A DNA stretch of 64,000 nucleotides, taken from Phoronis australis. Taxonomy: Eukaryota > Animalia > Phoronida. Position numbers and translations under genes: made by a program. The notes below the pieces were generated by a model. It was given only the letters and a program-made list of their open reading frames with translations, made no database searches and was not told where the DNA came from. The stretch spans positions 248,001-312,000 of the forward strand of contig NMRA01000361.1 of assembly GCA_002633005.1 (NCBI GenBank). The letters are read 5' to 3'. Below, piece after piece: positions 3,000-36,923 of the stretch; the stretch's first letter is position 1, and each line of letters starts with the position of its first letter.

Positions 3000-3147
3000 C
3001 ATAAGCGGCGCAGCACTGAAAGAAGTGGGGTGTTAAAGCCTCCTCAGCCTCCCTGTGGTGAACCGCCTATAAATAGACCACGTGCGGTGTAGCACTGAAA
3101 AAAGTGGGGGGCTATAGCCCCCAGCCCCCTATGGTGCGCCGCCCATG
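3000..3147 (+). mobile_element. Short MITE (CATGGGCGGCGCA-type TIR) with internal duplication and 5-bp TSD
   Basis: Starts CATAAGCGGCGCAGCACTGAAA and ends TGCGCCGCCCATG; TGTTG on both sides. Same family as 6368-6440 and 11522-11597. Confidence 0.7.
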
Positions 3148-3828
3148 TGTTGTTATGCAATTATATTTGTTTCTTGAAATTGTTGGACTAGGAGCACATC
3201 TGAGCTGGTATTTAAACTACAACAAGTAAACTGCAGTGCTGGAATTGTTCCGCAAAAATCCGATGCCCTTTGTGTAGACGCAGTACACTCGCAAAAATGC
3301 AAAATCACGCTACTATTCACGAGATAGGGCCATGCAGCATAACCATGCGATCTCACTCGATTTACGCCTGAAATTCTTGTGTAGTTGACCCAGCAGGGGC
3401 CGACCAATGCACCTTGACGCCCTGCTCGATCAGTCGAAATTTGGGGAGTCCGACATACACCCTGCAACATACGTTTGAATGAGGTCCTTGCCGTCGTAAA
3501 ACTGGAAATAGAACGGTTCTAAAATCGCGCGGCGTCTTTCAGCTGCAGCTGAAATGAGCGCATTTCTATCAAATGTTGAGAGCAGATTTTTTGGTATTGG
3601 TCTCTATCTACCAAACTCTGTCACTTTCCTCCACCGGGGGCCGAAATTATGTGTTCCTGTTGAGAAGACCACTGGTGTTTGTTTTGCTTTGAGATAATTT
3701 TTTATTTTATTATTTATGTCAAAGTATACTCCACTATACGTCAGCAAGACCATCGGTAGCGGAATTCATTGCCCTACCCAGTTAGTCACCGCCAGGTAAG
3801 GTCCGTATTTGATGCTACTGTATCGGCA

Positions 3829-3980
3829 CAGTGGCGGATTTAGAGGGGGGCCAAGGGGGCCATGCCCCACCCCCTAAAACTCTTCCATTTGGCAATTCGG
3901 GGGTGCGTCGTCTGACGGGCAAAATCCTGGCTAATACTCTGCCCTGGCCCCCCTAAATATAAATCCTGGATCCGCCCCTG
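3829..3980 (+). mobile_element. ~150-bp MITE with CAGTGGCGGAT...ATCCGCCCCTG TIRs
   Basis: Clear TIRs; body closely similar to 40354-40512 and to the reverse complement of 2466-2625. Lies about 560 bp upstream of the HCP start codon. Confidence 0.75.
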
Positions 3981-4539
3981 CCGCGGCACAACTAATTCTT
4001 AATAACTAGTGCTCCAATTCGTGAAGATAGTCTTACGAATGTGAAATGTTCCTTGGCTCAGGAATCGTTCTACTAACGTGCTAAAAAGTAAACCGTGCCT
4101 GAACGCGCGACGAGGAAGGCCCCCCGGCTGACATTCAGTTGAAACCGCTTGGAAGAGAAGTTACGTAACAGGTCTCCAAATATTGGTCGCATCAGGAAAG
4201 CACCTTCCTCAAAGATACTATAAAATCTTTGCCTTCCTGGACGCATTCATGTCTTACCGTAATCACTCATTGACGTTTCGGTGTCATGCGGCTCTTTACT
4301 CCGGACTCGTGTCTCAGTTTACGGGAAGCAGTTTGCCAATCACCCAGTCTACATGTACGTCATTTGTTGCTTCACACTACGTTGACGTTTTCCTGACCTA
4401 TTTAAAAACAAATGTTTGATGACCGTAATCGCCCTATATAGCATTCCTAGTCGGGTTAATGTGTTGTGCTACAGTATAGTTGCCGTGGGTGTATTTTATC
4501 CGCGCTCTGATTGCTAGGGTCACTTACCATTTGGTTTCA

Positions 4540-7500
4540 ATGGCCTCTCGTGTGCTTTTGCGCTGGGGAGCGTCTGGATTTGTATCCACAAGCAAAATAT
4601 GGCAGTCATCCAGGAGCGTGGTGGTTGGCTCTCTTATCCGGAGGCAGAATACAGACTACGCACCAGGTCTTGCGGCTTGTAATGTGGTTTTGAACCGAGG
4701 ATATGCTGTTAAACCGAGACCTTCAAAGGAGTCCACACGCGAGGGTATGTGTATAAGGCTATGTAGGACCTATCAACAAGCCTGGCTGTTTAGCAAAATA
4801 TCTACAAATTATGGAATTCAAGTCAATAAAAGTACTTTTTGTGAAAGTAGAAAGCCTGTAGAATTGATGTTTGGATTTTGATAGATCTTGGATGAATTGG
4901 CAGACTTGTTCATGTCCTTTAGTAAAATTTAAAAAAAAGGAAGGACCATCGACAGCAAAATCACGGTATCAACAACATTGTTTTATATTGACTTGACTGA
5001 GATTAGACATGCTCTTAGTTAGAATGACTTAACGACTGGGCTGATGTGGTTATAGGCTATGTACTGTCTTATTCTGCTATATAGTACCTATCGGAAACCA
5101 TGCTTTGTAAAAAGAAGGAGTAACTGAACGCCTTGTGCCTTGACACTCGCAGACTCCTATATAAACATGCATTTCTTGACAAAGTGTTCAAAATGAAACC
5201 TCAAAAACTCTGTTACAATTTTCTAAATTACCTCTTCCATTTCGTTTATGCAACATCAGATTTTTTCATGAAAATCGCAACAGTCTAAATTTTGATAGCC
5301 CTCACACAAAAGTGGAACATTTAAGAATAGGGTTTTGAAGAACATCGCATAATAAAGCAAAGTATCTGAGAAAGTTTCATATGAATCCGATCTCCCATCT
5401 CTGAGATATGATGGATGTTACTAATTTTGGTCAAAATTGAACTTTTTATGGGTCTGCATAGCCTTAAACCAACTAACTGGACAATAGTACAATGTCATTA
5501 TTTGTTAATTTGTATAATTTCAAACGTCAGTGGTAAATGCTATTGGTAGTCCAGTAATTGGAGTAGCAGTCCGTTTTATATCCCATAGCAACAATACAAT
5601 AATTTCGTTAGAGCTCGTCAAAATCTTCATAACGCATACCAAAACTGTGTGGAGGAGGCAAGAAAAAATTATGAAATTGAATTGTGACTTATTTCATTTT
5701 GAACACGAGCAAGTTCTTTGAACTATTTTGACGCTGGAGTGTTAACGTAGACAGGAGACTGGATAATGTCTAAATATTTCGTTCAGACCACAGTCTGCCA
5801 AATCACTATCTTGAGGTGACTGTTACGATAAAAATGTGCAATGTCATAAAGGATTACCTGGTGAAACTGATTAATGTGGTCGTTATCTTATGAATAATTT
5901 TGTGATTGTGACTTTAAAAGTCTTTCCCACGTTACGGATTTTTTCAACTTCTCCCCATCTTCAATGCACATTGATTTTCTTCTGACACTCATGCCCTCCA
6001 CTATATCTTCATGACCCTTCCGAAAAAGATCTGATCACTATTTACACACGCTATAGGGTAAAGCTATAGATTTGACACTGAGCTGTAGAATTTCAAAAAA
6101 GTTGGTCACTTTTTTGAAACTGAATGGTGTCCGCAGGAATGTAATGTATTCCTTAGCACTTGAATTTCGACTGGAACCCTATCTATGAAGTCTATCTGGC
6201 GAGGTACAGCATTTTTTTCTTTTTCATTTCGTTTTTTATTTCTTTATTTTACTTCACAAAACCTGAGTTTCTAACAGCGCAATTATTTAATCTCCAAAAT
6301 CCCCCACCCACGTCAAATTTTGATGGTACGCGAATTGCCAAATTGTATACAGGAAAGATCGGTCCTACATGGGCGGCGCAGCACTGAAAAAGGTTGGGGG
6401 GGGGCTATAGCCCCCAGCCCCCCATGGTGCGCCGCCCATGTCCCATTGATATGCTGGGATGATTTTAGGACCGCGCCATTGTCGCGTAAAGATTTTCAGT
6501 CGTGACGCACTGTAGTTACTTAACTTGCCGGGCCAATGCACATATAAAAATTGGGTCGCAGTCACGCCTCATTTTATATCCATTGAATTCAGATAGTAAC
6601 TCAAGGACAATGCAGAGCAGTCGATCAAAACTAACTTTGTCGATGACCAAAACGACAATGTTGGGGTGGTGGTAAAGCATTGTATGAAAATATACATATC
6701 TCAACTATGGATTTGTGTGTTTGGTTCCCAGGTAGCCGTTTAGACAAATCACTATTCGCCGTGCAACGTACTAAAGTAGCAGATGAAATCACACGTAAAA
6801 ATGTACCCCCCCCCCCATGGGATCAAACAAGGACTGAAAATGCTAACGAGTGACATGTTACTAATTTGTCCATACGTTTGAGACCCTGTGAGTCAATTTT
6901 CGAAAAGGATCCCTGACTTAGACATGTTTCTCTTTCCTGATCTTAATATATTCAATTTCTTAGCTGGACTAGAAGAAATGAATGGGCCTCGGGTTTTTCG
7001 TCAGGAATACTTCCAGTGTGCCGGCGGCAGAACATTTTAGGCGCCAAGCGGCAAGGCCTCAAGCTGTAACGAACTGTCCGAGCTTCGCTTCTTATTTGAG
7101 TTAAGACCAAGTTGAGATCAGATTTGTAACGAGATGCTTGGTCTAAATTAAAAGTTTTTTTGTGACGAACTTGCGTCCAAGTGCTCACGAAGACGAGCAC
7201 TTGCCGATTTTTTTTTCTTCAGCCAATAAGGAGGTAAATTATCGATTGCTTGTGAAGTATAGAGATATGCCAATGTACATCTTCAAATTGGAAAGTTTTA
7301 TATCTTTGACTCTAGTGACGGGTAATCCACGTTGTCTTCCAGAGATGTTTTGTTTTCAATGTGAACAGACAAAAAACCGACGAGGATGTGTCGAGATTGG
7401 TGTTTGTGGAAAGACACCAGACGTCGCTGCTCTGCAAGACCTCCTTGTGTTTGTTTTGAAAGGCATCTCTGTCTACGCCAATAGGCTTAGAAAGATGGGA

Positions 7501-10500
7501 GTTGGGATTCAACAGGAGATTGGAGAATTTACGTTTGGGGCTCTTTTCAGGTAGACCTATTCAAAATTAAGGATTATTACGCGATATTGTCTTAAAATAC
7601 CCACGGGTAAATCAAATAGGAACTTACCAGCACCCACTTGCAAGGCCCAGAGGCGGATCTACAGGGGGGTTCAGGGGGTTCAAACACCCCTTTCGTGACA
7701 GGATCAAAAATAAAAACTCCAGAAAAAAGAAATCAGCAACTAAAAACCACAACAAATCTTACACGACCTTCCTTCCGCTCAGCGCTATGCGCCTCGGATT
7801 CGCTCGAATCCTAACACCTCCCCTCCATTACTGAAAACGTAGATCTGCCACTGCAAGCAATTGTTCGTTAATATGCATACTTGTCTCTATTGTCATTAAA
7901 ACGCACTTCTTTGTTGTTTTGATTTTGTGTCAGTTTTACAGTCGATCTTTTAGTCCTGATTACAATTTCAGTTGATCCAAACAAATGTTATTTTGTGGAG
8001 GCTGTTAGGGCCGGTGTTTATTTTTTGTCTGAATATTCTTTCAGTACTCTCACGAATGTTAACTTCGATCAAGATCGTTTTGTTGAATACATATCAGACG
8101 CAGTTAAATATCGAGATCAGCTCAAAGAATCATACATGCTGACATGTAGTGATGAGGGAATCCCACCGGACGTGTTCCTGCACGGACCTGCGCACTGGAA
8201 GCCTCCTGGCAATAAGTTTGACGTGCACAGCCTGGTAGAAGAAGGTATTTTTGCACGATTATGCATCAACTTTTTTCGCTGTAACTGTAAGTGAACCTCT
8301 CGAAAACAAACTCGTGGTATAAACCTATTGAAAATAGATTTTCTAAACAGTTGTTTTAACGTAAACGTTGATCGTTCTCACAGTCCTTTCGAGTTTTAAT
8401 GTCCAGACTTGAAATTAGAGTAATTCATTTACTTCAGAATTTTTTTTCTCGTAAGTATGATAGTGCAACTCATTACAGGAAAGCAGGTGAATCTCCGTAA
8501 CGAGGAACTCCAGTACGGCGAGGATGTTCACGGCGTTCGACAGATGATCATCTACGGCCTGAAAGGCATGGCGGCTTATGGGCGCCATGCGCAACTGGTG
8601 GACGAATATGACGATTCGCTGTGTGGGTTTGTGTATGAAGTACGTTATTTCGAACACCATTCTATGGCCATTATTAGTCTTACAGGTTCATTTCCGATCG
8701 CTATATGTTTACTTAAGTTTTGGCCACAATTCTACTTCTGCATGAAGATATACCTTTCATTTTTATGCTACTAAATGTTTCACTGGATGGAAGCTCCCAC
8801 CTCGTACAGAATATAAAGTCTCAATAATTGGTGCATAGCCCAGGCTGAAGAGGTCAACCTAGCACATAGTATCTGCCGAGTGAATTGGCTTTAGTTGTAG
8901 TTTGTCTATACCGCTAGTGGTGAATAAAAAAATCTTTTTGACTTGAGATCACTGCACCAGTTGAGTACAATATTAGGCCATCACTACCACCTCCACTAAT
9001 ACTACTTCTGCTAAATCGTTCCAGGCACTTGACTGGCTAGCAACTGGCCCACCAAAAGAAACAAACGATTTGGGAGCTAATCTTGCCATGGCTTTGAGGG
9101 TCGGCGAGGAAAACATTAAGGGGCTCCAGCTTCTGGACAAGGGTCACTGCACCTTATATGGAAACCCATCACCAACTGAAGTCAACTTAACACCGGTACC
9201 TGGAAAGGTAAATGTTTTCGGTTCTACAAAAGACTTGTCAGTAGCCGATAAGCACACAGGTGCCAAGATACTGTTTACTTCTAAAGCTGCTTTGTGAGAA
9301 ATGATTAGGTTTCATAGTTTGAAGAACATTTAACAAATTTCGTTTCAGTGTTTATTGGTATCCGGACACGACATTCATGACGTATATAACATCCTCAAGA
9401 TGACAGAGGGAACTGGAATCAACGTCTACACTCACGGTGAATTGCTTCCGGTGCATGGCTATCCCAAACTAAGAGAATTTAAGGTGAGGATAGAAGTGGC
9501 GGAGTAGAGAAGAATAGTCCCCACTCGTCTGGAACCTGGTTGCCAACCCTTTCTGTAAGAAGCTAGTCCTTTTTTCATCTGACGTGCTGTAGGCCCAGTT
9601 ACGCCCTTTTAAGTTTTAAACAACTTGGTCTGACTATTGGTTCGAAATATTCAGTTCTGATGCTAACTAGGAATCATTTTTTTAGCACCTTGCAGGCCAC
9701 TTCGGTGGGGCGTGGCAACTACAGCGGTTCGAGTTCCCTATGTTTCCGGGCCCTATTGTTATCACCACCAACTGTTTAACAGAACCCATGAAGTCGTACA
9801 AGGACAGCATCTACACAGTCAATGAAACAGGTAGCCATTACACACGGTTGCTGCGTTACTTGGTGTTTATCAGACATCGTGCCAAGTTAATGACTGTAGC
9901 CGTTATAGTTCTAGGCTTAACTATAGCGCTTGTGTTTAAATGAACACGCCATGAGCACCCCAACATTGAGAACAAGCTGGGAAGTGTGGTCATTTATTTT
10001 GTAACTAATTTAAGATGAAAATCCGAGTCGCTATGAATACTGAATATGACGACCATATTAACACTTTTCCTCAATGTCACTCTCACTCTCGTTTAATCCA
10101 TCACGGCTTTGTTATTGACGTTTTTTCGCCAATTGTAGTTAACGTTCCGATCTTTTCTTTGCGGAGATTCGATGATTTCCTGTTGGTATATTTATACGCT
10201 TAGTACTATAATTTATTTTAAGGCTGGCCTGGGGTGAAACATTTGCGTAACTTGGCAGAGGACTTTCCTCAAGTGATTGACCAGGCATTGTCAATGGAAG
10301 GGTTCACTAAGGCCCGTCAGTCTGAGCAACAAAAGACACTAACTGTGGGATTTGGTCATCATGCTATTGTCAGTAACGCCGACAAGGTAACTACTGTGTA
10401 GCTAATCTTTCCAATTTTTAAAACCATTGAAACCTTTTGTGTAAATGAGAGTAAAAAGTTCAAAGACAACCCACCATCGAACTGTATATTATACTATATT

Positions 10501-11075
10501 ATATTATATTAGTAAATACTTATCCAGTGTTGCTTTATTATCGCCTGGCGTTCTTTTCTTTATAGGTCATAGGTGCAGTGCAATCCGGTGAACTTAGTCG
10601 CGTATTCCTCGTAGGCGGATGCGATGGTGCTGAGAACAAGCGCACATATTTCTCCAAACTCGTGGATGGGTTACCCGAGGACACTCTCATCCTCACACTA
10701 GGTTGCGCCAAGTACCGCTTCAACCGGCACGAGTTCGGGGAACTGGGGTCAACTGGACTCCCACGCCTTCTGGACGTCGGACAGTGCAACGATGCTTACG
10801 GCGCCGTTGTAGTCGCTACAGAACTTGCTAAAGCGTTCAATACTGACATCAACTCCTTACCCCTGTCGTTGAATATTTCATGGTTTGAACAAAAGGCCGT
10901 TGCAGTTTTACTGTCTTTGCTGCATTTGGGCGTCAAAAATATTCGCTTGGGTCCCGTCATGCCGGCTTTCCTCACCCCAACTGTTGTTAACATTCTACAA
11001 GACAAGTTCAATATTATGCCAACTCAAGTGAGAAACCCGAATGATGATCTGAAGGAAATGATGTCGGGAAATTAA
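4540..11075 (+). CDS. hcp: Hybrid-cluster protein (HCP / prismane / 'hydroxylamine reductase', NO reductase family) with N-terminal mitochondrial-type presequence; spliced, 636 aa (657 aa with optional exon)
   Basis: Exons 4540-4744, [6732-6794 probable], 7343-7550, 8045-8244, 8479-8639, 9025-9207, 9349-9483, 9686-9830, 10223-10386 and 10566-11075. All introns are GT-AG and phase-compatible; total 1911 nt (1974 with the optional exon). Motifs: [23 protein letters not shown] (cubane Cys cluster), [75 protein letters not shown] at about 11142 and 11212. Confidence 0.95.
5055..5463. mobile_element. Probable non-autonomous DNA transposon (Kolobok-like termini) in HCP intron 1
   Basis: Short TIR GGCTATG / CATAGCC with TATA / TTAA flanks. 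Only one copy seen in the window. Confidence 0.35.
6368..6440 (+). mobile_element. 73-bp MITE with CATGGGCGGCGCA...TGCGCCGCCCATG TIRs
   Basis: Perfect 13-bp TIR; flanks TCCTA / TCCCA (4 of 5 match). Same family as 3000-3147. Confidence 0.7.
7648..7853 (+). mobile_element. MITE with CAGAGGCGGATCTAC...GTAGATCTGCCACTG TIRs, in an HCP intron
   Basis: 15-bp imperfect TIR related to the CAGTGGCGGAT family. TSD not clear. Confidence 0.6.
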
Positions 11076-11521
11076 AAGTAAGAAGTGGTCAACTTCAAAG
11101 GAACTCAAGGTTTTTCGCTGAAGAGGAACTTAGAGTTGGGAAATAAAAATGCAGTTCATTTTATTCTGTTGAATGATTTAGCTTTATTTATGTCCATTTT
11201 CTTGAATTAAGAATAAAAACCCCAATTTGATGTTCGTTTTAGTCGGTAAAACTTGGCGAGACGCAGCTTCAACTAATGAAAAGGTTAGCGTTTTAAAGAT
11301 CTGTAACCAAACCACAGTTCCGACTCCGTAAGACCAACACGGCGCCAATTCCAAGCGGGAAGTCGCGATCTCTGTAAGGTCGTAACTTCTTTTTGTTCAA
11401 GTACAAACATGTTAATCTTAGTTTCTGGTAAATATAATGTGTCAGTGGTAAAATGTTGCATTAACTATTTAGTAGCATTCTTGTCGCGCCGTGTTGAGTA
11501 ATTGCAACAACAGCGTATTGA

Positions 11522-11597: not shown

Positions 11598-12011
11598 ATT
11601 GAATCGACCGGTTGTTGCAGTTTTGTGGAAGAGGCTTTTCCATCATTGAATGCAAAGGTTATAATTGAGAATCTTCTCGTTTACGATGTAATTATTGTTA
11701 AGTTGTATCATTGTAAATTTGATCGTCATGTAAATAAAAAGCCTATACAAACCTTAGTGTTTTAAGTCAGTATCTCAATACATGCCTTTTTCAAAAACAC
11801 ATTTTGGAGTCTTTTTGCAAGCATTTTCCAGCACTTACCAGGCAACAATCTCTTCACCGCGTGGAAAAATACTTGCTAACCACAGTCGACGACGTGAACA
11901 AAGTGTGACGTCACGACCGTGGTGTAACGCAATATGTACACATGATTTCGTTGAAATGGTGGTTTTCAACCGAGCATATTACCGACCTAAAGAAGCCATG
12001 AAGTCTATGAG

Positions 12012-13972
12012 ATGGGAATACATGTATCTTTCCCAATAGTTCTAGATCCATTGGCATTCGAAACTGACGAGACATATAACTGCATGGGTAAGCAGGTACA
12101 CGTAGTTGATAAAAAAGTTGTTTTAACGCGACGTGGTGACGCTTCTACACACTTTTCCGAAAATGTATATTTTAACCGGAAACTTTTCAAATGTGCCTCG
12201 TCGTCTTGTTGTAAGCCACGTCGTTTTTAGTAGCCACCCAAACTAGTATAAAAATGAACGACTGGAAGAGTTCCGTAGACCAGTACATTCGCCGCGCTAA
12301 TACATGCATGCGTGAAAAATACAGGCAGTCCATATAATTTGTGAAGTCGTATGTGAACCTACTGTGATCCCTCATAAATAATTGCTGTTATAGAAACAAA
12401 TGCCTCATTTTTGTTCAGTCTTTCAAATGAGCCCATGATAACATATGTATAGGGGCTATTGTGAAAAAATACACCTCCCTCCTTAACAACAACTCATTTG
12501 CTAAATTATAGTTTTCTTTGTGATTCAGAATCTGATTAGGTGACTGAAATATAAGCTTATCTTATTTTCAGAAAAAATCGTTAATTTTCACTTAAAATTC
12601 CTTCTATGTGGCCAGGTAAACTTAGGACATCTCAGAAGAGCGCGGGTCACAGACGAAGACGACGTCACAAACTGGAAAGGGTGACTGAAGAATTCTTCAC
12701 GGGATTTATCGATGAACGTAAAGATATAGAGGAAAGCAAGAAAAAGTTCAGAGGCAAGTCCCGTCCTTAAATGTTTTACATCCTGAATATACACAAAGAC
12801 AACCTCGAAATTACCTTCCAGAGGTGATTAATTATATGCCAAAGTCATTAATAAACTTGGAATGAAATGAATCGTTGTATCAATCAAATTCTGTTTGATT
12901 TCAGAAATCGACATCTCGTCACTGCGGGAGAAATTTCCCAAGTTCTGCGAGGTGGAAATTCTTGTGTTTAGGTCGTTGTTTCAAACATTTGACGTAAACC
13001 AAGATTGTGTTATAGATTTCAATGAATTGTAAGTATCTCTATGCTAAACTGCAAACTCGACACCTGTTACGGTGTGTGGCTCATTTATTACGAAAATTAA
13101 AAAATGTCAGCTTTGATGCGGTTAGATTAAAAGGCACGCTTTAGCGTGACATTTGAATTTCTTGCAAAAGTGAGTAATCGATAATGACTTTAAGCGACAT
13201 CTGACTCTTTTAAGGTGTCGAGTATTAGATGATCTAGGGGACCGTTCAACCAGAGCGGCTCGAAGAACTTACTTTGACTTAGCAGACGAGGACAAGTCAG
13301 GATCGATGGATTTCGAAGAATATTTGAAGGTAACTCATTACAAATAGGTGATTTCGAACGTGGTCGACTGGCATAGTTTTGAACTTCGCCAACCACCGTG
13401 TTGTGCTTATCAAAACCCTGATTGTAATGTAAGGCAAGGAAATTGCAAACCCTTGTCCTTGCTTATATGAACTGAGGAAAAACACCGAGTTAGAAAACAT
13501 AAAAGTAAAAACGCGTCCTTTCCCATCATCAAGGTTTTTTAACTATGCTATTCTCACCCATCGTCTTGCCTTTTGCCTCTTGTTGGTATGCGTCTGGAGC
13601 ACGCGGGTACTACTGGATTGGGAAACAAGGCAGTTTTGGTTCTCCTCATATTGTAATATGTACAGTGTATGTTTGTAGTGTGAATGCACGAAAAAACCGT
13701 AACTTCCATTCTCCCACGAAACGGTACCTACTTTGAAATTCTTTTTTAGCTGCGAAAAGAGTGTTCAGCTTGATAACTCGGCAGTGATGCTTATGAGTTC
13801 GGCAATTTTCGTAATAACCCGTTTTGTTTTCTAGTTCCTCGATCTAATACTTCATCAGCACGAGAAGCAGTTCTCTGAGCTGAGGCTAGAGTTAACTAAA
13901 CGCGGCTTGGAGAAGGCAGAGCGACTACGAATGCTCAGTGTCCCAGAACAAATGCGACATGGGTTGTTCTGA
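12012..13972 (+). CDS. 196-aa two-EF-hand calcium-binding protein (AIF1/EFHD-swiprosin-like layout), possible N-myristoylation
   Basis: Exons 12012-12087, 12616-12753 (GC donor AG|GCAAGT), 12905-13028, 13215-13329 and 13835-13972; total 591 nt, open frame. EF loops DVNQDCVIDFNE and DEDKSGSMDFEE; N-terminus MGIHVS; ends MRHGLF-stop. Confidence 0.8.
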
Positions 13973-15489
13973 CACTAACTTATTTTTATAATTAAAATGT
14001 TTTTATATAACTTATTTATTGTTATTTGTACGCACTGTTTTGATTTACCTAGCTATAGTAGATTACGTACGTAGTACTTTCATAGAAGTTACACTTTACA
14101 GTTTTATTCACCCTGGCAGTTGTTTCTACATCACTGTGTGTGCGAATACGTATAAACATTACGTATTGCAATTAACGTGCGTTCTAAGAGCTGTTTTTTG
14201 AGTGCCTTAGTAGAAATTTATCATTAAGACTGCAGTATATTGGCACTATTTCAACTTGTGAAGAAGATAAACTGATGTCGCAAGGACGTAAATAGTTGAA
14301 CACAGCAGTGTTACTTGGATTACAAATAAATTTTCTTATCGGTGTAAATTCGTGGTCAATTTTGTTCAAACGTAGTAATTGTTATGGCAGTAATGTAATG
14401 TTACGTCACTGGACCTGCCAATTTACAACTGCAGACGGTCATTCAGTGTGTATAAATAAACATTAAATAAAATTTTGTGACTCTGTTTTATCCATTAGCT
14501 TGACTGACTTCAGACTTCTCTCCTAACTTTAGCGTCATCGACTATTAACTGGCAAAGCGACAACACTTGCTTGAATTCATTTTTGTCATTGGACCAAGAA
14601 TCCTTGATAGCTTGACGCCGATGTTCCTATAGTCGAGCAAATATCATTACTAATATCTCCCAAAACAGCGCCCATGCCTTTACAATTGTCTACTCGATTT
14701 CACTCGATCCTCTTTCTTCACAAACGAATCGTTATAACTTCCACATTTCCGTTAAATCTAGTATGAAGAAGAATTGATGTGAATTATTGCAAATGGCAAA
14801 TGTCTGAAACAATTACTTTGCTGATTGTTGTTTTTTGTGAGCTATAACAAACCAAAGCCTCACTTGGCTGCAGAAGATAACACTAGACACGCAACGTGTC
14901 TGCAAACACTTATTTAGAGACTCGCCGGAACCAGTAAAAATTCGTGGAACATATTTCGACCTACTATGATTTACAATTCAAAACTTTACCTTTGGTAGTT
15001 GCAATGCCTGATGAAGGAGACGGTAATACGAGAGCTTTCCGCCATAAAGTGGATCCGTGTGCGTGGTCCGTTCGGAATGGTTAGCGACATTTCTTTAACC
15101 ACTGCTCATTCTTGTGAAATTACTTTATTTTTAAGATATGTGCCCACCGAAAGTTCCCTCAACATCTACACATGTGACCTTTTACTTTGGTACCAGCCAA
15201 GTGTCTCTATTGACTGGTAATTGAATGGAAAATATTTTGTATACGACCTAGGGTCAAGAGGACGCACACGGACATTTGAAAGAGGATTGCACATTGTGGA
15301 TTGATGGGAACCGTTATTTTACTCCAGATTTCTACGATTTGGTACTACGAATATTTTTGAAGGCCACATGAATAATGTTTCATAACAAGTGTGAAGGTAG
15401 CACATTTCAAATTTCTCTCAAAACGCTTTCTGGCACAAGAACAGCCATTGAATATGGGTACTGACGGTAACAGACTGGGAGAATATATT

Positions 15490-17977: not shown

Positions 17978-20900
17978 TTAGGTTGTGTCTAGTCTAATCA
18001 TGCGTAGTTTGTGACTGTCAGCCAATACACAGGCAGCTTCATTTGATCCTCCGCAGTAACCAGACGAAGAGAAGACTGTTAACAACTTGCCCTTCTGTTG
18101 AACCTAGTCAAATAATGTGCACTGTTAGTTTTGACACTTTCCAACGGGTGATTCAGGAAAGTGTGGACCCTTCTTTGTTTGAGTTTGTTGTTTCAAGCTC
18201 AGTATCTCATTTTTTTCAAGACAACTTAAGCCATAAAAATTCGGTTTTGGAGCTCTAAGGTTTGAATTTGTAAGCTTAAAGAATTTGACTTAACAGACAT
18301 TGCAAATGTACAAACCGATAAGAAGATATTGTACGTAATTAATACGATATAGTGGACAATAATGAATCCACCCTTGGCACTGATACTCTAACCACTGTGT
18401 TTGGGTTCCATTTCCACATTTAAACAAGAGTATGTGCATAAAAAGGCACGCTGATATCTTGCCACAAACATCTCTCTTCCACTGCAGACAGAAACGAATC
18501 TAAGTTTGACAGAGACGAGCAGGTCATTACCTAAAATGTGATGGTACAGCCCTTCAAGATAAGGCTTATGACAGCCACCCACCAACCATGACAAACGAAT
18601 TACCACTATCCATGACTACTGCATGACCACCATCCATTAGTCACAACTAAAGATCATAGAACCCTACAAGATCAGATGGATGACCACCAGACATAAGTCA
18701 TGACCAGTGAATGACTACCAAACATCAGTTATGACTTGAGACCAACTTACCTGGAACCCCACTTGTTGTACCTCATGAGCTCTAATCACGTGAGACAGAC
18801 CATTTCGGGACAGAAACTTCACCAAAGCATCACAGCTGAAGAAGTAGGCCGTACCTCGTCGTGTGTTGTGAATGAATCCGTCACCGTCCTTCAAGTCTTG
18901 CTTCTGTTCTTCGGTCAATAAGTCATTACTGTAAAGGTGGAAGAATTCGAGTGCTTGTTAAAAAGTCAATTGCAAATAAACAGGTCATTCATTACCACAC
19001 TCGTCCGGGTTACCGCCCAGGGTGCTTTAATTGGGAATCTAAAAACCCAGGGGGTTGGCGGTAAGTCCAGTATAGGTGGTAACAAGCACGAGTACTGTAT
19101 TACATGAACAGAATGAGAGAAAGACACAAACAAAAGTAGTTGCCTATGAGCAGATTTGACAGAATTACAATAGCTATACACTTTGATAGATACTCCAAAG
19201 GTTTTAAAAAGATAAAAAGGTGGAATTTCTGCATAAAACAAATGTCAAACTTAAAACTGTTCACTGCACTGTGAATTATTGATAAACGTGCAACATGGCT
19301 TAGCACTGCTTAGGAAATCAAATGAAGGCGTCCAGTGTGCAGTTTCACAGAATGAATTCCAAGGTATTAGACTCCATTTAGAAAATGGGGAAAAGAAATT
19401 CACAATAGACACAAACCTGGTTAGGGCTGTTCCAGTAAAATCTGTATGGGAGGGGGAAGGCACTTTTTTTCGCACCCACCACCCATATTTTTCACATATT
19501 TCTTCAGCCCACCATCTGTATGAAATGAAACCACCCGTAATTTTTTTGTTCTTATGGTTGACTGCACAGGTGCTTGAGTTTATCTGTTCCTCGATCACAA
19601 TGGACGTAATTCAATACTAAGAAAACATATGTTTCTTATATATGGTTATTAACCATCGGGAAATTCGAGCGCCTGTGATTGACTAGTGTTATGGGCATGC
19701 CGATGGGGAGATCAGAGGGAGTGAAAAGTCGGACCTTTTTGGAAGTTGCGTTTTTATTTTAGTAGTTGATTCTGTGCAGATTGTTTATAAAACTTACTGA
19801 AATTACCATCAAACATTTATGGCACAATGAAACAACAACGACCTGTGAATTTTTATTTTTTTGAAGAACGACTGCCAGCCATTTTGAATTTAAATCAAAC
19901 ACAACCACCCCTAAATTTTTATTTTAATTGCTTTCCCCCCTCCCATACGGATTTTACTGGAACAGCCCTTAGGTAATATCCAAGAGTGTTATTTTATGGT
20001 TCTTATCAATGTATCTATAACATCTTGGCCCAAAATTCAAAAATACATTCCAGGTGCATGAAAGCACATTCTTGACATCAACTTGACTAAGAAATACATC
20101 CGTTAAATTTGATGAAGTTGTACCACGGAACTGGAGTTATTGCGGCAGACATGAAAAGGTGAAATTGCCACGAGGGGGCACAGCATTGCGTCAAGGAAAG
20201 CTAGTCTATACTCTCTATGGCTATGTTCTTTTGCAAAACTGACTTTAAATAAATTAAATCCAAACAAATTGAATTGAATTTTGGGGTAAAGCGGCATTGT
20301 ATTGATCTGAAAATGGACCCCAGTCATGCTCCAGCAACAAGAGCACATCCATCAAATGGACCTCAGTCATGCTCCAGCAACAAGAGCACATCCATCAAAT
20401 GGACCTCAGTCATGCTCCAGCAACAAGAGCACATCCATCAAATTTCTTGCTGTTCCTTTAACTGGCAGGTAGAGCCGCATGCCAAATACAGACACCGAAA
20501 TACTCAAAAATTGCTACTTGGGGGCGCACAACATAACGGAAATGTCTGAAAATTATTAGGTGACGCCCCTTTTTAATACAGACATATCTGGCTACTTTTA
20601 TAAAGATCCATCAAGGTAGACGGAAAAAAAATTGCCACCGGAAGCAGTCACTGAATTTCTTTGAAAATAGTCATCATCCATTGTTATGTTTTGAAAAAGG
20701 AACACACCTGCCCAATTTCAAGGAGATGCTGCGAATGCTGAACAACCAGACGGGGACGACTACAGTATGCGTGGACATACATATTGTAAGAGAGTGCATA
20801 TCACCTGATAAATAATAAACGGCACAACTGTATTTACTTGCAACCTCCATATTGACCATACCTGGCTGGGTCACTCCACATGATTTCCCAAGCTAGATCA

Positions 20901-23900
20901 GATTGTGCTTCAGGGTCCTTCAGTGGTACAGGTATATTGTCTATTGCTTCTAGCTTCCCCTCCCCATGGTCCGTAGAGGGTATACCACCATGAACGCAGA
21001 ATATCTAATATACAAAAGAGATGACACAGCATGTAATGGACAATCGAGCAGACAGAGAAATGCAAATACAGTCTAGCACAGAAAGAGTTTGATCTAGGTC
21101 ATCACTTCATGATTTTAAGACATTTGCAAAAGGTTAAAAGTTAACGGTACATACGTGTATTTAGGCCCATGTACCTAGTATGTATTTATTATAGGGACAT
21201 AACAGAGTGCAATTAAAAAACAAAAAGACTTTCTATGCAATGCATCCCCAGCCTCTTGGGCTTATAGGTCACCTGATACAAATTAACATGCGAGTGGTTA
21301 ATATACACTGAATACAGGCAGATCTTGTGGCAATCTAGTGCCTTAATCAAAAACTTGTCAAGGGCTTCTGGATAATCAAGAAACAATTCTAGAAGGGAAG
21401 ATTCATTTGGTAAATCGTTCTAAAACAATTTTTCTAGGTGCAAATGAAAATAAAAAAGAACAGAAAACATTAAAGAGTAATATCTACTGGGAATTAGGAC
21501 AACACAAAGAAACTAGGGGCTAGATTACCTTCTCATCTACAACGGCAGCAATTGGCATGACATCAAAACAGTCGTTGACTGCCTCCCACACTTGACCTCC
21601 CAGAGTCTCACCAAACTTTAAAGTGCATTCCCTGTTGAACAACAATAAACATCAGGGAAATACAAGTATTAACAATAATGTAGTAAATTCTCACCAGTTT
21701 CTGAAAAAAATATTGGATAATATTGACCTTTTTTATTTTCTAACATTTTGTGAATGTCCACAATTTCTCTGATGTTACTTTAAGTTATCATTTATTATGA
21801 AAAAATAAACTTTCAGTTGTCTGCCATATCATGTGTTAAATCAGTGAGACTTTGCATACATTCCCTTTCAAGCAACAATATGAGTATCTGCACACGTACA
21901 AACAAATTCAAGATCAACGTTTCCTTTTTCGTCTAAATGCATCATGATTCCTTGGCCAAGAACTAAACTTGAAATGTTATTGATTTTTCCAGTCTCCTCA
22001 GACTTAAACTAATGAATGTAGAAGCCATCACCTCTGAAACATTATGTCTCAAGATCAGCCGACTATGTCATCATAGGAGATATAGGGTTTTAGTACCGGG
22101 AATTTCTAAAAACTGGCCCACCCAAAAGTACGGCCATGGGCGCATTTGGAGAAAATTTTCCAAAAGTACGGCCATGGGCATATTTTTGGTAAATGTTGGC
22201 ATGTTTTGAAATTACAATGGATTGTTTTCCTTGGCAAGACATATTTGGGGCTTGTGATTACACTGAAATGACTATGATCATGTAACAAAATATTAGGTGA
22301 CTTTGTTGGTAACTAACCATATAAGCACAGTATGACGGACAGTTTTAAAAACAGTTTCCGAAGATACGACCCCCTTTTCTGAAAATATGCGTTTTGGTAA
22401 GGTCATTTTCCAAATATCCAACCATGGGCCTATTTTACAATGGTACTGTAATCATATGATAAACAATCAAGTCAAATTTGATACCACAAAATGACAAGAA
22501 ACAGCATTTTAGTCAAAAAATGTACTTGTATAACCTAAATTTTGTATTTTCTTTAGAGCAATATGTAAATCATATTATAAAACAATTATTTGCCATGGCG
22601 TATTGGTTTTTATACCCCAAATTTGTAATCACAGCCAATAGGTGGGGTTTGAAAAAGGACATAGTGACATCGGCAAACATCAGAAATTGTTGGTATAATA
22701 ATTCATTATCGTGTACAACTAGAAAATTTTTAAATATCAACCCTTCAAGAGGCTTGCCCATTAGTAACGATTTTATTTTAAAGAAATGGTTTTAACAATT
22801 GAGTATTCAAAATTTAAACAGCCCCCATAAGCAGACATGTTGACATGCTGTTTGAAACTGAACTATGTACTTACTTCTCAAACTGAAACATTTGCTGCAC
22901 GGACCTCAGCTCGTGGTTTCCTCGAAGGAGGTGGAATTTCTTTGGAGCCAGAATTTTTTGAGCAAACAAATATGAAATCACCTGCAAGGATTCAATGTAA
23001 ACATATAAACATGTCAATTGCAGGAGTTTCTTTTATTCAGTGCGGGTGAAGAAAATGTGAGCGCACCTCTTGGGATTGTTGGTTTCATGTCTGATCTTGC
23101 TGGTGCAGCAGTCCCAAGGCATGTGTCAATATTTACAGCCATACACTTAATGCAGCATTAACCAATTGGAATCTCCGAATATTATTTCCCAACCAATCCG
23201 AATATCCAAATGTCACCCTGTTCTGCTAACCAATGAGAAACCAGATTCATCATCCTTGAACAATGCTCTCTCTCATAATACTGGATTAAAGTGTACTACA
23301 CTGAATACGTGTGACATAATTCGAAGGAAATCTTGCCAGCATAAATCAGTTTCTGCAATGGTGACTTCTAAAATTCATGTCTCTATACGTGAAAAGACCG
23401 GTGACAACTTATTGCGTGTGGTTCAGCAATACTACCCTTTACTATGTACCCTCATAATACCAATACTGTGAAAGCACTACAGCAACAGTTAGTGAGAAGC
23501 TCCAATTGACTGACTACTTCACCTTACCTCCACACCATGCTCCCCTCTGTCCACATAGTCACCCAGAAACAAGAATGAGGCAGGCGTCAGTAGAGGACCC
23601 ATTCTCCACAGAACCTTCTCAAAACAGATCAGGTCACGGTAGTTGCCGTGAATATCACCTGGACAAGAAAAAATTTACTGAGCACTTGATGTAAAATAAG
23701 CAATTATCAACAAATCAACAGAAGCAGGATTATCACACAACTTAATAAGACCTCAGCAACAGGAAAGTGAGATGTTGTAAGTCAATGGAAAAGGCATCAC
23801 TATTCATTTGATTTCACGTATTTGTTTGCACCTGTTGTTATTGCGTATAAATTAGAAATATAATGGTCTGCATTACTCACTGTAGAGGTGACATTCACAA

Positions 23901-26900
23901 CATAACATGAATACAGTCAGAGTTGTAAGGTGATATTAATGACATAACGTGAATACACTGAACAGTGGTATCACATTGCAGTGGTGATATTCGTGACATA
24001 ACATGAATTCACTTAAAGTTGTATCACATTGCTGTGGTGATATTCGTGACATAACATGAATTCACTCAAAGTTGTATCGCATTGTAGAGGTGATATTCAT
24101 GCTGGTACAAAACACTTTTTTACGCAGACTTGTACAAACCGTTAATGGAGAATTTAAAACGGGAATGAACTTTCCACACAAAAATCTAACTAACCTAGAA
24201 TGTAAGTGGGTGACTTGAGTCTCAGTAAACGTGTTTCATTCTGCAGGATGAGTCGCACCTCTCGACACAAAGACAGAAGACACTTGGCAAGTGCATTCTT
24301 ATCCACAGGGCCCCAGTCAAAAGCATTCTGAAACAAAACAGTTTAAAAATCGTCTTGAAATTACCACGGTGGGAGAACCATTAAATATGCTAAGTTTCAA
24401 CTGGTGTAGTGGTTACGGTGCTGGACTCAAATTATCTGTAGTTTCAGGAGTCGTGGGTTCAAATCCTGCCTCGGACAAAAAATCACACCACGAGTGCGCC
24501 ACATATTTGTGCACATTCTTCTAAGAACGCGGGAACACCTGACGATGGCCGGAGAATAGATCGACCGAAACGTCGTGACAATGTAAATAGACAAGAGGTC
24601 GGTGTAAACAGACCAAGAGGTTTAACGATAGTTGTAACACGTCACCACCTCAGAGAGGTGTTAGAAAGTCATTTAGAAAATCCTGCTATGGTTCCCGTCC
24701 AACTTTTCCAACATCAAGACCTTCCAACTATTATGTAAACCAGAAGTAGCAGCTGCAGCAGTTAATCCTGAGTCTCTGACTTGAAAGACTGGAACAATGA
24801 ACATGTGTAGTGAGGGAACTTGTAAAGTCCTAACTAAACACCTGTTAACTCACCTTACACTCTTTACCGTTGTCAGCCTTTAAATGTCGTTCAAAATATT
24901 TGAGCCCCGTTAACATTTCATTAGGATGAGATTTCTGGAAAGATTTGAATACTACTTGATACAATAAATAGCATAAAATATCACCAACATTGAAATTCCC
25001 CCCAAATCCCCTGAATCTCTAAAGATCAAAACGAAGCCGTAATATGCGCCCACAGTGAAGCACAAGCAATGTGTTTCTAGGGTTCTTATCAGTTCCATGT
25101 TAGATAAAGAGACAACAATTTGACTACAAGAGGTAGCAGCAATATTCAGAATTCACACAAATTGTTGGTACCTTACCTTTTAAAACTAACATGAAATCAA
25201 AAAGTTTAAAAAGTAAACAGTTTTCATTTGCAATAAACAAATAAAACATGCCACAAAGGGACTCAGCACTAAGTATCTAAAAATTAACAGGTCTAGTACA
25301 CTGCTTCTCATAAAGAACACTCATTAGGTTTAGCAGAAACAAAGATAGAGACACAAAATGACATAACAGGTACAGCACTTGTTTGAATCTGCTCAAATCT
25401 GGCAGCTACAAAATAGAGTGGCCACTAGGGTAGCAGTCCATTGCTGTCAAATACCTTGATAAAATCTGGATATTCTTCTTCCCAAAAAACCATAATACAG
25501 GGCCTTGTCAAGAAAAATGGCCACTAGAGGCTGCTGCAGAGATTGAATTCGCCCAAAAATCGACTGCAAACCCATGTGGCAAGTTTCATGAAATCCATCA
25601 ATAGGTTCCCTAGACATCATCTGGAAATGCTCATAGTAGAGTAAAAAAATCTCGAGACCAAACTGGCCACCACTAGAGGGTGTTGCTGCAGAGATCGAAT
25701 ACGTCTGACAAGTGGCAGCAGACTGCAGTCACAAACCTCTGGATGACAATATGAACCACACTACAAGACAACCAACTTACTAACTTAGTCTATTCTGATG
25801 GTGAATTTGGCTTCCGCTGAGCTGTCAAAACAGGGAATTGTGGGTCATTTTGTCTGAATACTTTTGGCATGTACATATACATGTACATGACTTTGTACAA
25901 AAAGGTCATACAGAATCATAAAAATGATAGAACAGAGGTGATGGCTGTGACAACCCAACATCATTATGTAGACTAAAGCAGATAAATGCTTAAGAAACCT
26001 AAAAAAGTGTTAGAGGCAGAACCCACAAATTTCCACAAACAGAACTATTTGCCCTGTTGCTGTACCTACCAAGTTGAAGGAGTCCACAGAGGCAAACCGC
26101 TGAAATCTGTTGCGCTCTCCTTCCAACTCTTGAGCAACACTACCACTGATTGCTGCAGTACCTAAAGAAACAACCAAAGATTTTTATCAACTTGAACAAC
26201 TAAGGCCACTTTGGTAACCAATGCCTCATAGATAACCGTTTATTACACACTAACAATTGCTGTGACTAGCGACAGAATGCTTTATAAGTTCGCTTTGTTG
26301 CAAACTGACACCAAGCTTGAGACAGTCAAAAATGTAAAGTGGTAAAAAACATTCATGCATGTTTATTTTTAAGAAAAAACCCAATTTTTTTTAACTCAAA
26401 ACATTGCGCCCCAACCACCAAAGCGACAAAGTCTACGAGACTTGCTATGAATCACTTAGTCGCAAGAATATCACTAAACTTGCTAAACTGACATTAAATT
26501 TCAATTACTACACATATAACAACAGGAAAATTTTACTATCATTATTCGCCATCTCATCAAAAAATAAAAGTAAGCTGACCAAAAGGTGGCACTTAACGGG
26601 GAGGAGTGTAGTGAATTAGCTGAATGTATGCAAATGTATTAGTGTCGTGAGCATGACACAATTTCTTAAATTTTTCATCTCAGGAATTTTAACTATTCAA
26701 AGCTTGCAAGAATCTGGTTGGACCCATAGAGCAGACATTATGTAGGATGTTTTGTTTGACATGACTTGTGTGTACGTTCAATCGAAATTAATACTAAAAG
26801 TGATTTAACTCGGTGGGGCTTTAAAGTAATTCAGATATGTGTGAAATATGTGGAACAAAGGAATTATTTAAAACTGATACGCGAAAAATATGAAAGTTAA

Positions 26901-29900
26901 TACTTGAGAGGCAGCCAACTCTTTATTGCTAAGGAGAAATATTACAGGGATGCCATTTTTCTTCTCATGTCAATTTTCCGTTTTGTTGTTAATGACTCGT
27001 TTGAGAAACAAAGAACAGACAATTGCTAACGTAGCTGTTAAATTTACTGTCACATATCTGTCCATGCATCACTATTCACTCACCATGTACAGTGACACAT
27101 GAATAATGAAAAGATACCAGTGACACCTTCAGTCAGTCGATGAGAACTTCCAACCATCAGTATCTTCATTGCATGTTATAACATTCTAATGCCAATGCAC
27201 TGATTCCTCACCCTTTAAGTCCCAGATGGCCATCACATCGGACAGTGTTCCAGTTCGTCGGACTTTGACTGCATGTGTGGCAAGTTCATACTTCCAGCCA
27301 GTTCCAGTAGAGGGCGGTGTGAATGTGGGTGAAAGGAAAGACAGGTCGTCCATTTTGTTATCTGAAAAATAGTGTTTGATGGCTGAAAACATAAATTGAA
27401 AAAATCAGTGTTGCTTTGCTATGTGTATTGTTCAAGCAGTCTGCAACCATTCTACCGAGTTGAAGAATATTGTGTGAAAGCGAGCAAAACTCCATGAAAG
27501 CATGTTTCACTCAAAGACAGCAACTCCTAATACATTTTGGGTGTTACAAGTTACAGACTAACCCCCAATCAGACAACAAGAATCATTTTCCAGGTTCTAA
27601 ATGACATATATCGAAACCGGATATAGTTAGACAATGTAGAAAAACAATAGCTTTCGAGTCTTAACGGATGCGGCTCTTCATATTTTCCATGTTCTGTTAT
27701 TTTGACTTACCGGCTTCAAAGTGATCAGACGTACTGAGTACCTCACTCGCTCTCATTCGCTTCAGTGGAGGAGGACTGGTCTGTAAGTGCCTGTTAATAA
27801 TTCACGCGACCATCAGGTTTTAATTATTAATATTCATTTAACTAAGAATTATTGGTTGAAACGCACATGTTCCACATTCTTGCAAAAGATTATTTTGGGA
27901 ACCTGACGACAGCATCAGATACAGACAAGAGACATGCACATCGTACATTTTATTCATGGGTAATTTAATCTCTCTTTAGACATACTTAACATTTTCGCTG
28001 ACAAAACTATATGTCAAATGGCATAACATCAGATCGTGATAGGGCTAGCCAGTGTTTAAGCAAAAATTTGCACAACTTGCTGATAACTGGGAATCTAGCA
28101 CGAGTACAACAGATGTCAAGCTGAGCAACCCTGCACAGCTCACCTTAGCAAATCTCTGGCAAAGACGATAACCATTTGTGCGGACAAATAAATCAGGATC
28201 ATTTTGGAATGAGAGCTAAATGACATTTCGAAAGTACAATGTATGTAAATGTATACGAGTGTCGTCACTAAAATTCCTCCAATCATTTTGTCTTCCTTAT
28301 CCTGTTCCCTAGTTCTCATGGCTCGCACATGCTCGTCCTGCTGAACCATTTTCAGTCTCTTTAGGATTTTCTTAACAAATAATAGTGAATATCTTTTGCT
28401 TCCTAATCCCAACTGCTGGCCGTAAATGTGACATTGAATTGAAAAGCATGTTTTAAATCTATTCAATCCATTGCCACTCTTTCGTAATTAAATGCAAGAT
28501 CCATGGTGCAACTTACTTTTTTCTCAGAGCTCCAACACAAGAACTTGGCAGTCGAAAAAGTATTGATGTTCCCCTGAACTTGAGCTGACCCACATGAGTC
28601 AGGAAGTCTGTCACCGAAAGACTATCCTTCTTCTCATTACCAAATACTCTGTAAAGTGAATATTGAGAGTACAATGTGCATGGAAATAAAAGTATTGAAC
28701 AAATTGCATACGAAAACATTGAATTTCTACTGTGTGCAGGTGTTGTTCATAGCTGTTTGAATTGTGAATCTTGTGGTGACATAGACAAAGGCAAGTCAAT
28801 AAGCCCAATAGTTCATTACATTTGCCAATTCATTTTACTGGTGGGCTCAGAGTGGTGCTCTTAACATTCTATAGTAACCAAAGTTACATGTGTTACCATT
28901 CAAATAGGTTTTAAAGTTTAAGCAGTGAGGTAAAATTATTTGGATAACTACGTAATTTTATATCAAGCATAACCACTTTTGATACAAACAACAGTTACTG
29001 TGCTTTACTTTGCATTGTTGACAGCCTCTGTTTCAAGAGAAGCGTCATCCACAGGCAAGTTCTTCAGAACTCTAATGTCCTTCACCAGTTCCCTGGAAAC
29101 AAAGTGTTAAACTGACATCATGCAATCATTGCGAAGACGGGCGTCACTTCGCTTTTTAGGGGTAAAACAGAAACACATCATGCCTTCAAAGTTAAAGATT
29201 AAAGTAGACACAATTTTCAAACTGCAGCTTAAAATGACCTAAATTTTACAAGAGTTTAGATCCATTTTACGTAAACAAGCTCGGAGGCTGAAGGTTTATA
29301 GTGAACAATACCCTAGTCTGTACAACTCAGGTGACCAAATAACAAGAACCAAACGCACAACAACAAAACAAAGAATAACACTAAGCAATCCTAACGTCTT
29401 GACCAACTTAAAAAAGAGTGCAGGTGGCCTGATGCCTTTTTTTTAATGTTTATTACGAAATCTTCAGAATACAATGAATATACATAACCCAGAAAGCGCC
29501 AAGAGGCATTAGATCTGGGTAAAAAAATACAAAGAAGTCTATATACAATGATTATATACAAATATATAAATAAAAAAACTGATGTTAAGAATACAATGAT
29601 ATATGACAACGAATGAAAATAATTTATTTTCATACAGATGTCTTATTGCGGTACATCAGGCGTGTTTAGGCCACAAGGCTCTGCCCATTGCACTAATCAC
29701 CTGATTGTCACTTGACTGACTTGAGCACAGCAGAGAAAATCTTGTTTCCAAGGCAGCCACAAGTGTGGGGCCAGCACCAAAGACACGCAACCAGATGAAA
29801 AGTAGATTTTGGTTACAAGAACATAGGGCACCAGGACAACCTACAACTCTGTGTGTGTCCAATTGGTAGTCATGCATCATGAAATTTGCACCTTTTCAAT

Positions 29901-36866: not shown

Positions 36867-36923
36867 TATGGCTTGCATTTGGTATGCAGCATGTGAATGT
36901 TGTCTGGCAGTTAATCCAGTGTT

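Follow-up and report, generated by a model that had tools for sequence, protein, structure and literature searches.

Hybrid-cluster protein (HCP) is an iron–sulfur (Fe-S) enzyme that publications describe almost exclusively from microbes; does an animal also own a working copy? The question is raised by a 64,000-nt stretch of the Phoronis australis genome (contig NMRA01000361.1, positions 248,001 to 312,000, forward strand; hereafter "the window"), in which an HCP gene occupies positions 4540–11075 of the plus strand. A 2006 study saw the HCP gene only in microbial eukaryotes and predicted that this trend would continue (PMC1484493). A 2023 account gives the hosts as bacteria, archaea and a few unicellular eukaryotes (PMC10210160), and the algal HCPs are treated separately (PMC8003979). 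The original prediction, drawn from the letters of the window, was that this animal carries a complete and probably functional HCP, domesticated after horizontal transfer or through patchy retention.

An intact, spliced and expressed HCP gene

Six-frame reading and splice-site fitting gave a gene of nine exons and eight introns. The joined exons measure 1911 nt and encode 636 amino acids and a stop, from an ATG at 4540 to a TAA at 11073–11075, with no internal stop. All eight introns are GT-AG and measure, in gene order, 2598, 494, 234, 385, 141, 202, 392 and 179 nt. Each of the eight splice joints was found in each of four RNA runs (X1–X4). A single 2334-nt contig of X1 spans all joints; about a fifth of each of the other runs was read, and sense-strand reads per joint ranged from 15 to 44 in X2, 7 to 28 in X3 and 28 to 53 in X4. 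The predicted complete frame with canonical spliceosomal introns was therefore borne out, with exactly eight introns instead of "8–9", and the spliced transcripts whose absence would have spoken against it are present in every run. Candidates for an additional exon inside the 2.6-kb intron 1 (near 6593 and 6965) were ruled out, since the RNA splices 4744 straight onto 7343.

All RNA runs are labelled as one species. Each exon shows a few letters of difference between them and the window, which indicates that the reads come from other individuals or from a close relative. We examined the 40 best-supported of 414 rows of RNA-versus-window differences, 19 of them in the coding sequence. The mature part accounts for 17, and every one is synonymous (23% expected; binomial p 1e-11). 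The remaining two, one amino-acid change and one 3-nt deletion, both lie in exon 1. We conclude that HCP is expressed, spliced and under purifying selection; a ratio of nonsynonymous to synonymous change near 1, the alternative raised at the outset, is at odds with the listed differences.

The same data bear on a rival explanation: contamination, misassembly of a microbial gene, a recent transfer from bacteria, or a pseudogene in decay. Linkage of HCP to its flanking genes is given by the assembly, which leaves some room for this explanation. The eight spliced GT-AG introns and the uniformly synonymous differences listed for the mature part argue against it. In addition, the GC content of the HCP locus resembles that of the rest of the window, and a repeat in HCP intron 1 has an upstream copy (read joints 3122/6370).

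Opposite-strand RNA covers the whole HCP gene, introns included (window 4000–11015, minus strand), in X2 and X3 and not in X4. Its depth is about 9–50 per bin and partly repeat-derived, and it ends abruptly near 11.0 kb. Sense joint counts of HCP are somewhat lower in X2 and X3 than in X4. This RNA is possibly a tissue-specific antisense transcript.

A class I protein with a complete set of site residues

Profile scans were made on exon segments for the window gene and on full-length orthologues for its relatives. Pfam Prismane (PF03063) matches six of nine submitted exon segments, exon 9 best (E 3e-59); exon 9 alone scores 201 bits against a cut-off of 27. With the NCBIfam profile (NF003658/TIGR01703), exon 9 alone reaches 260 bits, under the whole-protein cut-off of 367, and full-length animal orthologues reach 669–682 bits.

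The motifs SGHD, HGE, TTNC, GGCDG, GCAK, GQCND and WFEQK and the cubane motif, all named in the original prediction, were each recovered in the spliced frame. The cubane spacing C72-x2-C75-x8-C84-x5-C90 and the 567-aa core are those of class I, defined by short cubane spacing and a full-length N-terminal domain (PMC10210160). Class II spacing was not found: the window gene has 8/5, versus 11/6 in class-II-type loci. The hybrid-cluster site is complete (H326, E350, C394, C486, C514, C541, E575, K577) and, with the cubane, brings the count to 12 of 12 residues. In the alignment, all 28 other animal-clade proteins keep the eight hybrid-cluster residues, and 27 of them keep the four cubane cysteines, the remaining one being gapped there. 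Judged by its residues, the product is a class I HCP with an intact active site.

We used the Owenia orthologue, which is 58% identical to the window protein, to examine the fold. Its predicted model (predicted template modelling score, pTM, 0.82; extension disordered) matches solved HCPs with E 1e-45 and template modelling (TM) scores of 0.88–0.91 by target length (0.90 for D. vulgaris 1e1d). The match to nickel CO dehydrogenases (Ni-CODH) is far poorer (E 1e-17, TM about 0.5). Modelled through this orthologue, the predicted fold is that of HCP and not that of Ni-CODH. Counted on the Owenia-versus-1e2u alignment, the window residues fall on D. vulgaris His244, Glu268, Cys312, Cys406, Cys434, Cys459, Glu494 and Lys496, whose ligand roles we presume. 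For comparison, the Methanothermococcus enzyme has a persulfide at Cys402 and a Glu490 (PMC10210160).

The class I HCPs of Desulfovibrio vulgaris (1e2u/1e1d), D. desulfuricans (1gn9) and Methanothermococcus (8cnr) share fold (TM 0.89–0.91 by target length, Owenia model), cubane spacing and site residues with the animal protein. They differ in being prokaryotic, in lacking introns and presequence, and in an identity of about 40–42% (structural alignment, Owenia model). [quoted passage not shown]

An old animal clade with shared introns

To place the gene among its relatives, we searched with exon 9 (best 120 of 7996 matches) and with a profile built from 23 animal-type proteins. Among the matches listed, the top ones of both searches come from Owenia, Lingula, Helobdella and seven bivalve genera; cluster look-ups added five Mytilus species and the tubeworms Lamellibrachia and Ridgeia. 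The named carriers include Owenia fusiformis, Lingula anatina, Helobdella robusta, Lamellibrachia satsuma, Ridgeia piscesae and Mytilus spp., together with the bivalves Mercenaria, Mya, Dreissena, Mactra, Solemya and Sinanodonta. No arthropod, nematode, deuterostome or cnidarian was among the named matches listed (best 120), a search of 50%-identity representatives gave no new animal-clade row, and an atlas search returned only the HCP family's own clusters. In Mytilus galloprovincialis and M. edulis several HCP entries lie on one contig or chromosome each (P0142–P0151), which suggests tandem copies or split models.

The animal clade consists of the window gene and 28 rows, 12 of them with species names, with support of 100 (26 and 15 rows in smaller sets); each of the five trees for which support was computed gives this value. 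In three HCP trees the window row falls outside the named spiralians, and it becomes sister to Owenia after 65 distant representatives are added, so these placements do not argue for a non-spiralian host. The animal proteins in the databases share with it the clade, about 51–60% identity, cubane spacing, site residues and an N-terminal extension, and differ in species only.

Intron positions also bear on the age of the gene. A metagenome scan for the animal-type motif yielded three loci: one uninterrupted reading frame and two genomic fragments, both bivalve-like (L083, 81% to Mya; L082, 74% to Mercenaria). Exon 2 of both fragments is 208 nt long, with ends and phases as in the window gene, and exon 3 of L083 ends at the window gene's phase-1 site, making three intron positions common with bivalve-type genes. 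The shared exon ends and phases imply that the HCP gene and at least three of its introns predate the split of the host from those bivalves. We conclude that HCP, as far as its sequence relatives tell, is not special to Phoronis but is one member of an old animal clade.

The window itself looks animal. It holds a C8orf82/DUF4505 exon (Pfam E 3e-56) whose named matches are all animals, the best being a nemertean and gastropods at about 60% identity, and a tree of this exon puts the window among bilaterians (Shimodaira–Hasegawa-like approximate likelihood ratio support, SH-aLRT, 93). This bilaterian-type C8orf82 and the position of HCP within the animal clade support an animal nuclear gene over a protist or algal contig. 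With the three common introns and the tree position added to the evidence from RNA, composition and the repeat, contamination, misassembly, recent transfer or decay is exceedingly improbable, and we regard it as largely refuted.

How far had these genes been noticed? Many animal members bear the automatic database labels "hydroxylamine reductase-like" or "hcp". In the accessible literature we found no study of an animal HCP and a single passing mention, in Ruditapes (PMC5499747), although specialist papers and the supplements of PMC13777428 may list more. Term searches for HCP gave 0 occurrences both in the proteome study of Riftia (PMC6918071) and in the report of the Lingula genome (PMC4595640). 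The earlier question of whether homologs had already been noted is answered by the database annotations, and the view of animal HCP as largely uncharacterised stands, the protein appearing unstudied in that literature.

A probable origin among eukaryotic HCPs

Apart from one doubled algal protein (Tetrabaena), the best named non-animal profile matches come from a choanoflagellate, Salpingoeca punica, and an ichthyosporean, Amoebidium; amoebozoans, algae, a malawimonad and the filasterean Pigoraptor rank next. All named eukaryotes separate from all 67 named prokaryote loci (support 99). The split has support of 97 in a mixture-model quick tree (66 rows, 16 prokaryotes) and of 92 with the 65 distant representatives added. 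In these trees the animal HCPs group among eukaryotic HCPs, namely those of the choanoflagellate, Amoebidium, amoebae and algae. Approximately unbiased (AU) tests were run under LG+F+G4 with short searches on 66 rows including 16 prokaryotes. Joining animals with prokaryotes was rejected for the sampled prokaryotes (p=0.007), and joining animals with the choanoflagellate gave p=0.50.

The AU rejection and the eukaryote/prokaryote split make it quite unlikely that animals took the gene directly from a bacterial donor; they also speak against a recent bacterial acquisition of the locus. The earlier alternative of horizontal transfer or patchy retention has thus narrowed: a bacterial source is disfavoured, and retention or an old eukaryote-to-animal transfer remain, which the trees do not tell apart. 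HCP is probably an old eukaryotic mitochondrial gene that some animal lineages kept and many lost; the old transfer from another eukaryote we consider somewhat unlikely.

Recent proposals bear on retention. HCP homologues with predicted mitochondrial location occur across diverse eukaryotes, and the gene may date to LECA, the last eukaryotic common ancestor (PMC13632651). A second study counts HCP in one place among anaerobe-enriched LECA mitochondrial proteins and leaves it out elsewhere, where it lists the enzymes taken to have been present; its 673-species set includes Helobdella and Lingula, which its 203-species set does not (PMC13777428). We also observed proteins of about 1200 aa (P0396, P0398, P0402–P0404, P0423) in the eukaryote-containing clade, in which the HCP domain follows about 600 extra residues.

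A predicted mitochondrial protein

Exon 1 encodes 68 residues ahead of MFCFQC, the point at which bacterial HCPs start. We judged this extension by composition, charge and hydrophobic moment. The net charge over the first 40 amino acids is +5, their hydrophobic moment is moderate and they hold no transmembrane-like stretch; no 40-aa segment of the mature part gets to +5. The corresponding charge is +3 to +8 in 12 of 12 named animal HCPs and +4 to +9 in five protist HCPs. The extension therefore has the profile of a mitochondrial presequence, and mitochondrial import is predicted. The earlier description of the gene had the HCP frame right and overlooked this presequence-type exon.

Two eukaryotic systems offer a comparison. 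The HCP of Acanthamoeba castellanii is mitochondrial by microscopy and rises under hypoxia or anoxia, and its authors hypothesise a role in NO removal or nitrogen metabolism (PMC13632651). Chlamydomonas HCP2 is said to be mitochondrial (PMC8003979). Acanthamoeba HCP and Chlamydomonas reinhardtii HCP1-4 resemble the window gene in being eukaryotic and nuclear-encoded. Amoebozoan and algal HCPs fall on the animal side of the eukaryote/prokaryote split, the Acanthamoeba sequence itself being outside the trees. They differ in their unicellular hosts; Acanthamoeba mitochondria also have hydrogenase, pyruvate:ferredoxin oxidoreductase (PFOR) and NirK, and the location of the animal protein is a prediction.

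A candidate NO reductase under hypoxia

By analogy, we lean towards a mitochondrial enzyme that reduces NO to nitrous oxide (N2O) under hypoxia. Bacterial HCP is said to convert NO to N2O with high affinity, its hydroxylamine and peroxide activities being judged side reactions (PMC10210160). The tissues of the clam Arctica islandica produce NO that inhibits cytochrome c oxidase at low oxygen partial pressure (PMC7205294). Taken together, the bacterial reductase, the mitochondrial HCP of Acanthamoeba and the NO of the clam favour a matrix NO reductase working under hypoxia.

The proposed sequence of events begins with the nine exons, which the RNA shows to be transcribed and spliced into the 636-aa frame. 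The basic 68-aa extension would direct matrix import, with cleavage near the MFCFQC start of the bacterial-type core. Both clusters, the [4Fe-4S] cubane at the N-terminus and the 4Fe-S-O hybrid cluster, would then be loaded by matrix Fe-S assembly. NAD(P)H of the matrix would supply electrons, which would pass through some flavoprotein or ferredoxin to the cubane and on to the hybrid cluster, which would turn 2 NO into N2O. By removing NO, the enzyme may help to keep cytochrome c oxidase from being inhibited and Fe-S enzymes from being damaged while the animal burrows, closes its shell or lives in sulfidic sediment.

The same protein in the same place could instead act mainly as an S-nitrosylase or NO buffer, handing NO to mitochondrial proteins and so promoting metabolic depression. 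For E. coli Hcp a transnitrosylating role has been proposed, and for the algal enzyme it is a matter of speculation (PMC10210160), NO is implicated in the onset of metabolic depression in a clam (PMC7205294), and no electron-donor gene was found near HCP (0 of 103 segments). We rate this role as unlikely: it is called debated (PMC10210160), and the fully conserved electron-entry site at the cubane suits a reductase.

A third role, hydroxylamine reductase (NH2OH to ammonia) for detoxification or nitrogen salvage, is what the NCBIfam and RefSeq names say, and the activity is confirmed in several HCPs. With a millimolar Michaelis constant, low activity at physiological pH and a standing as a side reaction (PMC10210160 for both sides), it is less likely still.

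The protein might also be a peroxide-removing or redox-balancing Fe-S enzyme for reoxygenation, or act on another substrate of sulfidic, anoxic life. Bacterial HCP has peroxidase activity (PMC10210160), the Ruditapes genome paper puts the family among antioxidant reductases without a test (PMC5499747), and the carriers include vent and seep tubeworms and Solemya. A turnover of 0.05–0.17 per s is judged too low physiologically (PMC10210160), and a freshwater leech and mussels carry HCP too. Such functions have, in our view, a similarly small chance to that of nitrosylation.

Joining function to origin gives a wider proposal, which we put forward tentatively, at rather less than an even chance. 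Burrowing and hypoxia-tolerant bivalves, annelids, brachiopods and Phoronis may have kept a mitochondrial Fe-S-O NO reductase from the first eukaryotes. They would have an NO-to-N2O step of their own, which would set the depth of, and exit from, NO-driven metabolic depression and make their tissues a source of N2O.

Several points weigh against this NO-reductase reading and its vertical origin. Prokaryotes were sampled from 5 of the collection's 64 parts, with 67 of 80 loci used and 13 removed by an extraction filter. Joining animals with chlorophytes fits equally well (AU p=0.49 versus 0.50 with the choanoflagellate), and a fully monophyletic Holozoa (animals, Salpingoeca, Amoebidium, Pigoraptor) is rejected by a narrow margin (p=0.043). 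These two results mean that vertical descent is not proven, and it requires many losses. On the functional side, the role of bacterial HCP is itself still debated (PMC10210160). HCP is expressed in all three raw-read runs, for which oxygen conditions are not stated. Finally, no reductase gene was found to adjoin HCP: Pfam matched none of the 103 stop-free segments, taken upstream and from the opposite strand, in a search that short exons could escape. Nor do the animal proteins carry a fused reductase.

Gene coordinates and neighbouring genes

Table 1. Coordinates of the HCP gene and its parts within the window.
Feature	Position	Strand	Evidence
Hybrid-cluster protein gene, 636 aa	4540..11075	+	Exon joining, Pfam, RNA joints
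Exon 1, 68-codon N-terminal extension of mitochondrial-presequence type, first in-frame ATG	4540..4744	+	Composition and charge; RNA joint to exon 2 in 4/4 runs; targeting predicted
Exon 2, 208 nt, class-I cubane motif C72-x2-C75-x8-C84-x5-C90 at 7351-7407	7343..7550	+	Pfam, RNA joints; length, ends and phases equal those of L082 and L083
Exon 3	8045..8244	+	RNA joints; both ends equal exon 3 of L083 in position and phase
Exon 4	8479..8639	+	Pfam, RNA joints
Exon 5	9025..9207	+	Pfam, RNA joints
Exon 6, hybrid-cluster residues H326 (SGHD), E350 (HGE)	9349..9483	+	Pfam, RNA joints, alignment
Exon 7, C394 (TTNC)	9686..9830	+	Pfam, RNA joints, alignment
Exon 8	10223..10386	+	RNA joints
Exon 9, coding part: C486 (GGCDG, persulfide Cys by homology), C514, C541, E575, K577, stop	10566..11075	+	Pfam, NCBIfam, RNA joints, alignment
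3' untranslated region of HCP, reaching at least 11512	11076..11512	+	End of X1 transcript contig

HCP had been placed among animal housekeeping genes, and this holds in part. A ZNHIT3_C exon (Pfam E 8e-19) lies about 25 kb downstream of HCP, with an EF-hand-like gene (weak match), a calcineurin-like phosphoesterase (weak match) and a NUDIX gene in between. The other neighbours are presumably SNRPD3, AKTIP and KATNB1, names assigned from the appearance of their exons; a WD40 exon at 62.6 kb (Pfam: WD40 only) is compatible with KATNB1.

The EF-hand-like gene gives a spliced transcript at 11914–14300 (plus strand), with introns near 12087–12614, 13029–13214 and 13328–13832 and a weak EF-hand match at 13174–13344. 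Its expression is seen in X2, with the first intron present in X3 as well, and X4 has almost none. Its start lies within about 1 kb of the start of the antisense RNA over HCP, which suggests a two-way promoter. The phosphoesterase has scattered exons over 18718–33200 (minus strand) and a weak Pfam match at 18718–18957; more phosphatase-like exons were seen by eye at 20837–21004 and 21523–21651, and its expression in the runs is low.

Short interspersed repeats rich in G/C runs occur within HCP intron 1 and intergenically (3090–3148, 3829–3980, 6368–6440, 19500–19940, 30356–30397, 31100–31950) and are abundant in the RNA runs. Two near-identical stretches with matching translations (36858–37256 and 61254–61826) are probably a repeat or a mobile-element fragment.

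Implications for animal life without oxygen

An old, conserved, intron-bearing animal clade overturns the microbe-only picture of HCP. The finding is tempered by the orthologues already in databases and by the one naming of the family in a clam genome paper, and the function is inferred. With it, the likely toolkit of animal anaerobic mitochondria gains an anaerobe-type Fe-S enzyme. It also bears on the proposal, made in 2026, that traces HCP back to ancestral mitochondria (PMC13632651, PMC13777428).

For the animals themselves, HCP would be a concrete gene for NO handling under hypoxia. Up to now, N2O associated with animals has been attributed to microbes of the gut and shell; in mussels and clams, HCP may also be a gene for N2O output by the tissues.

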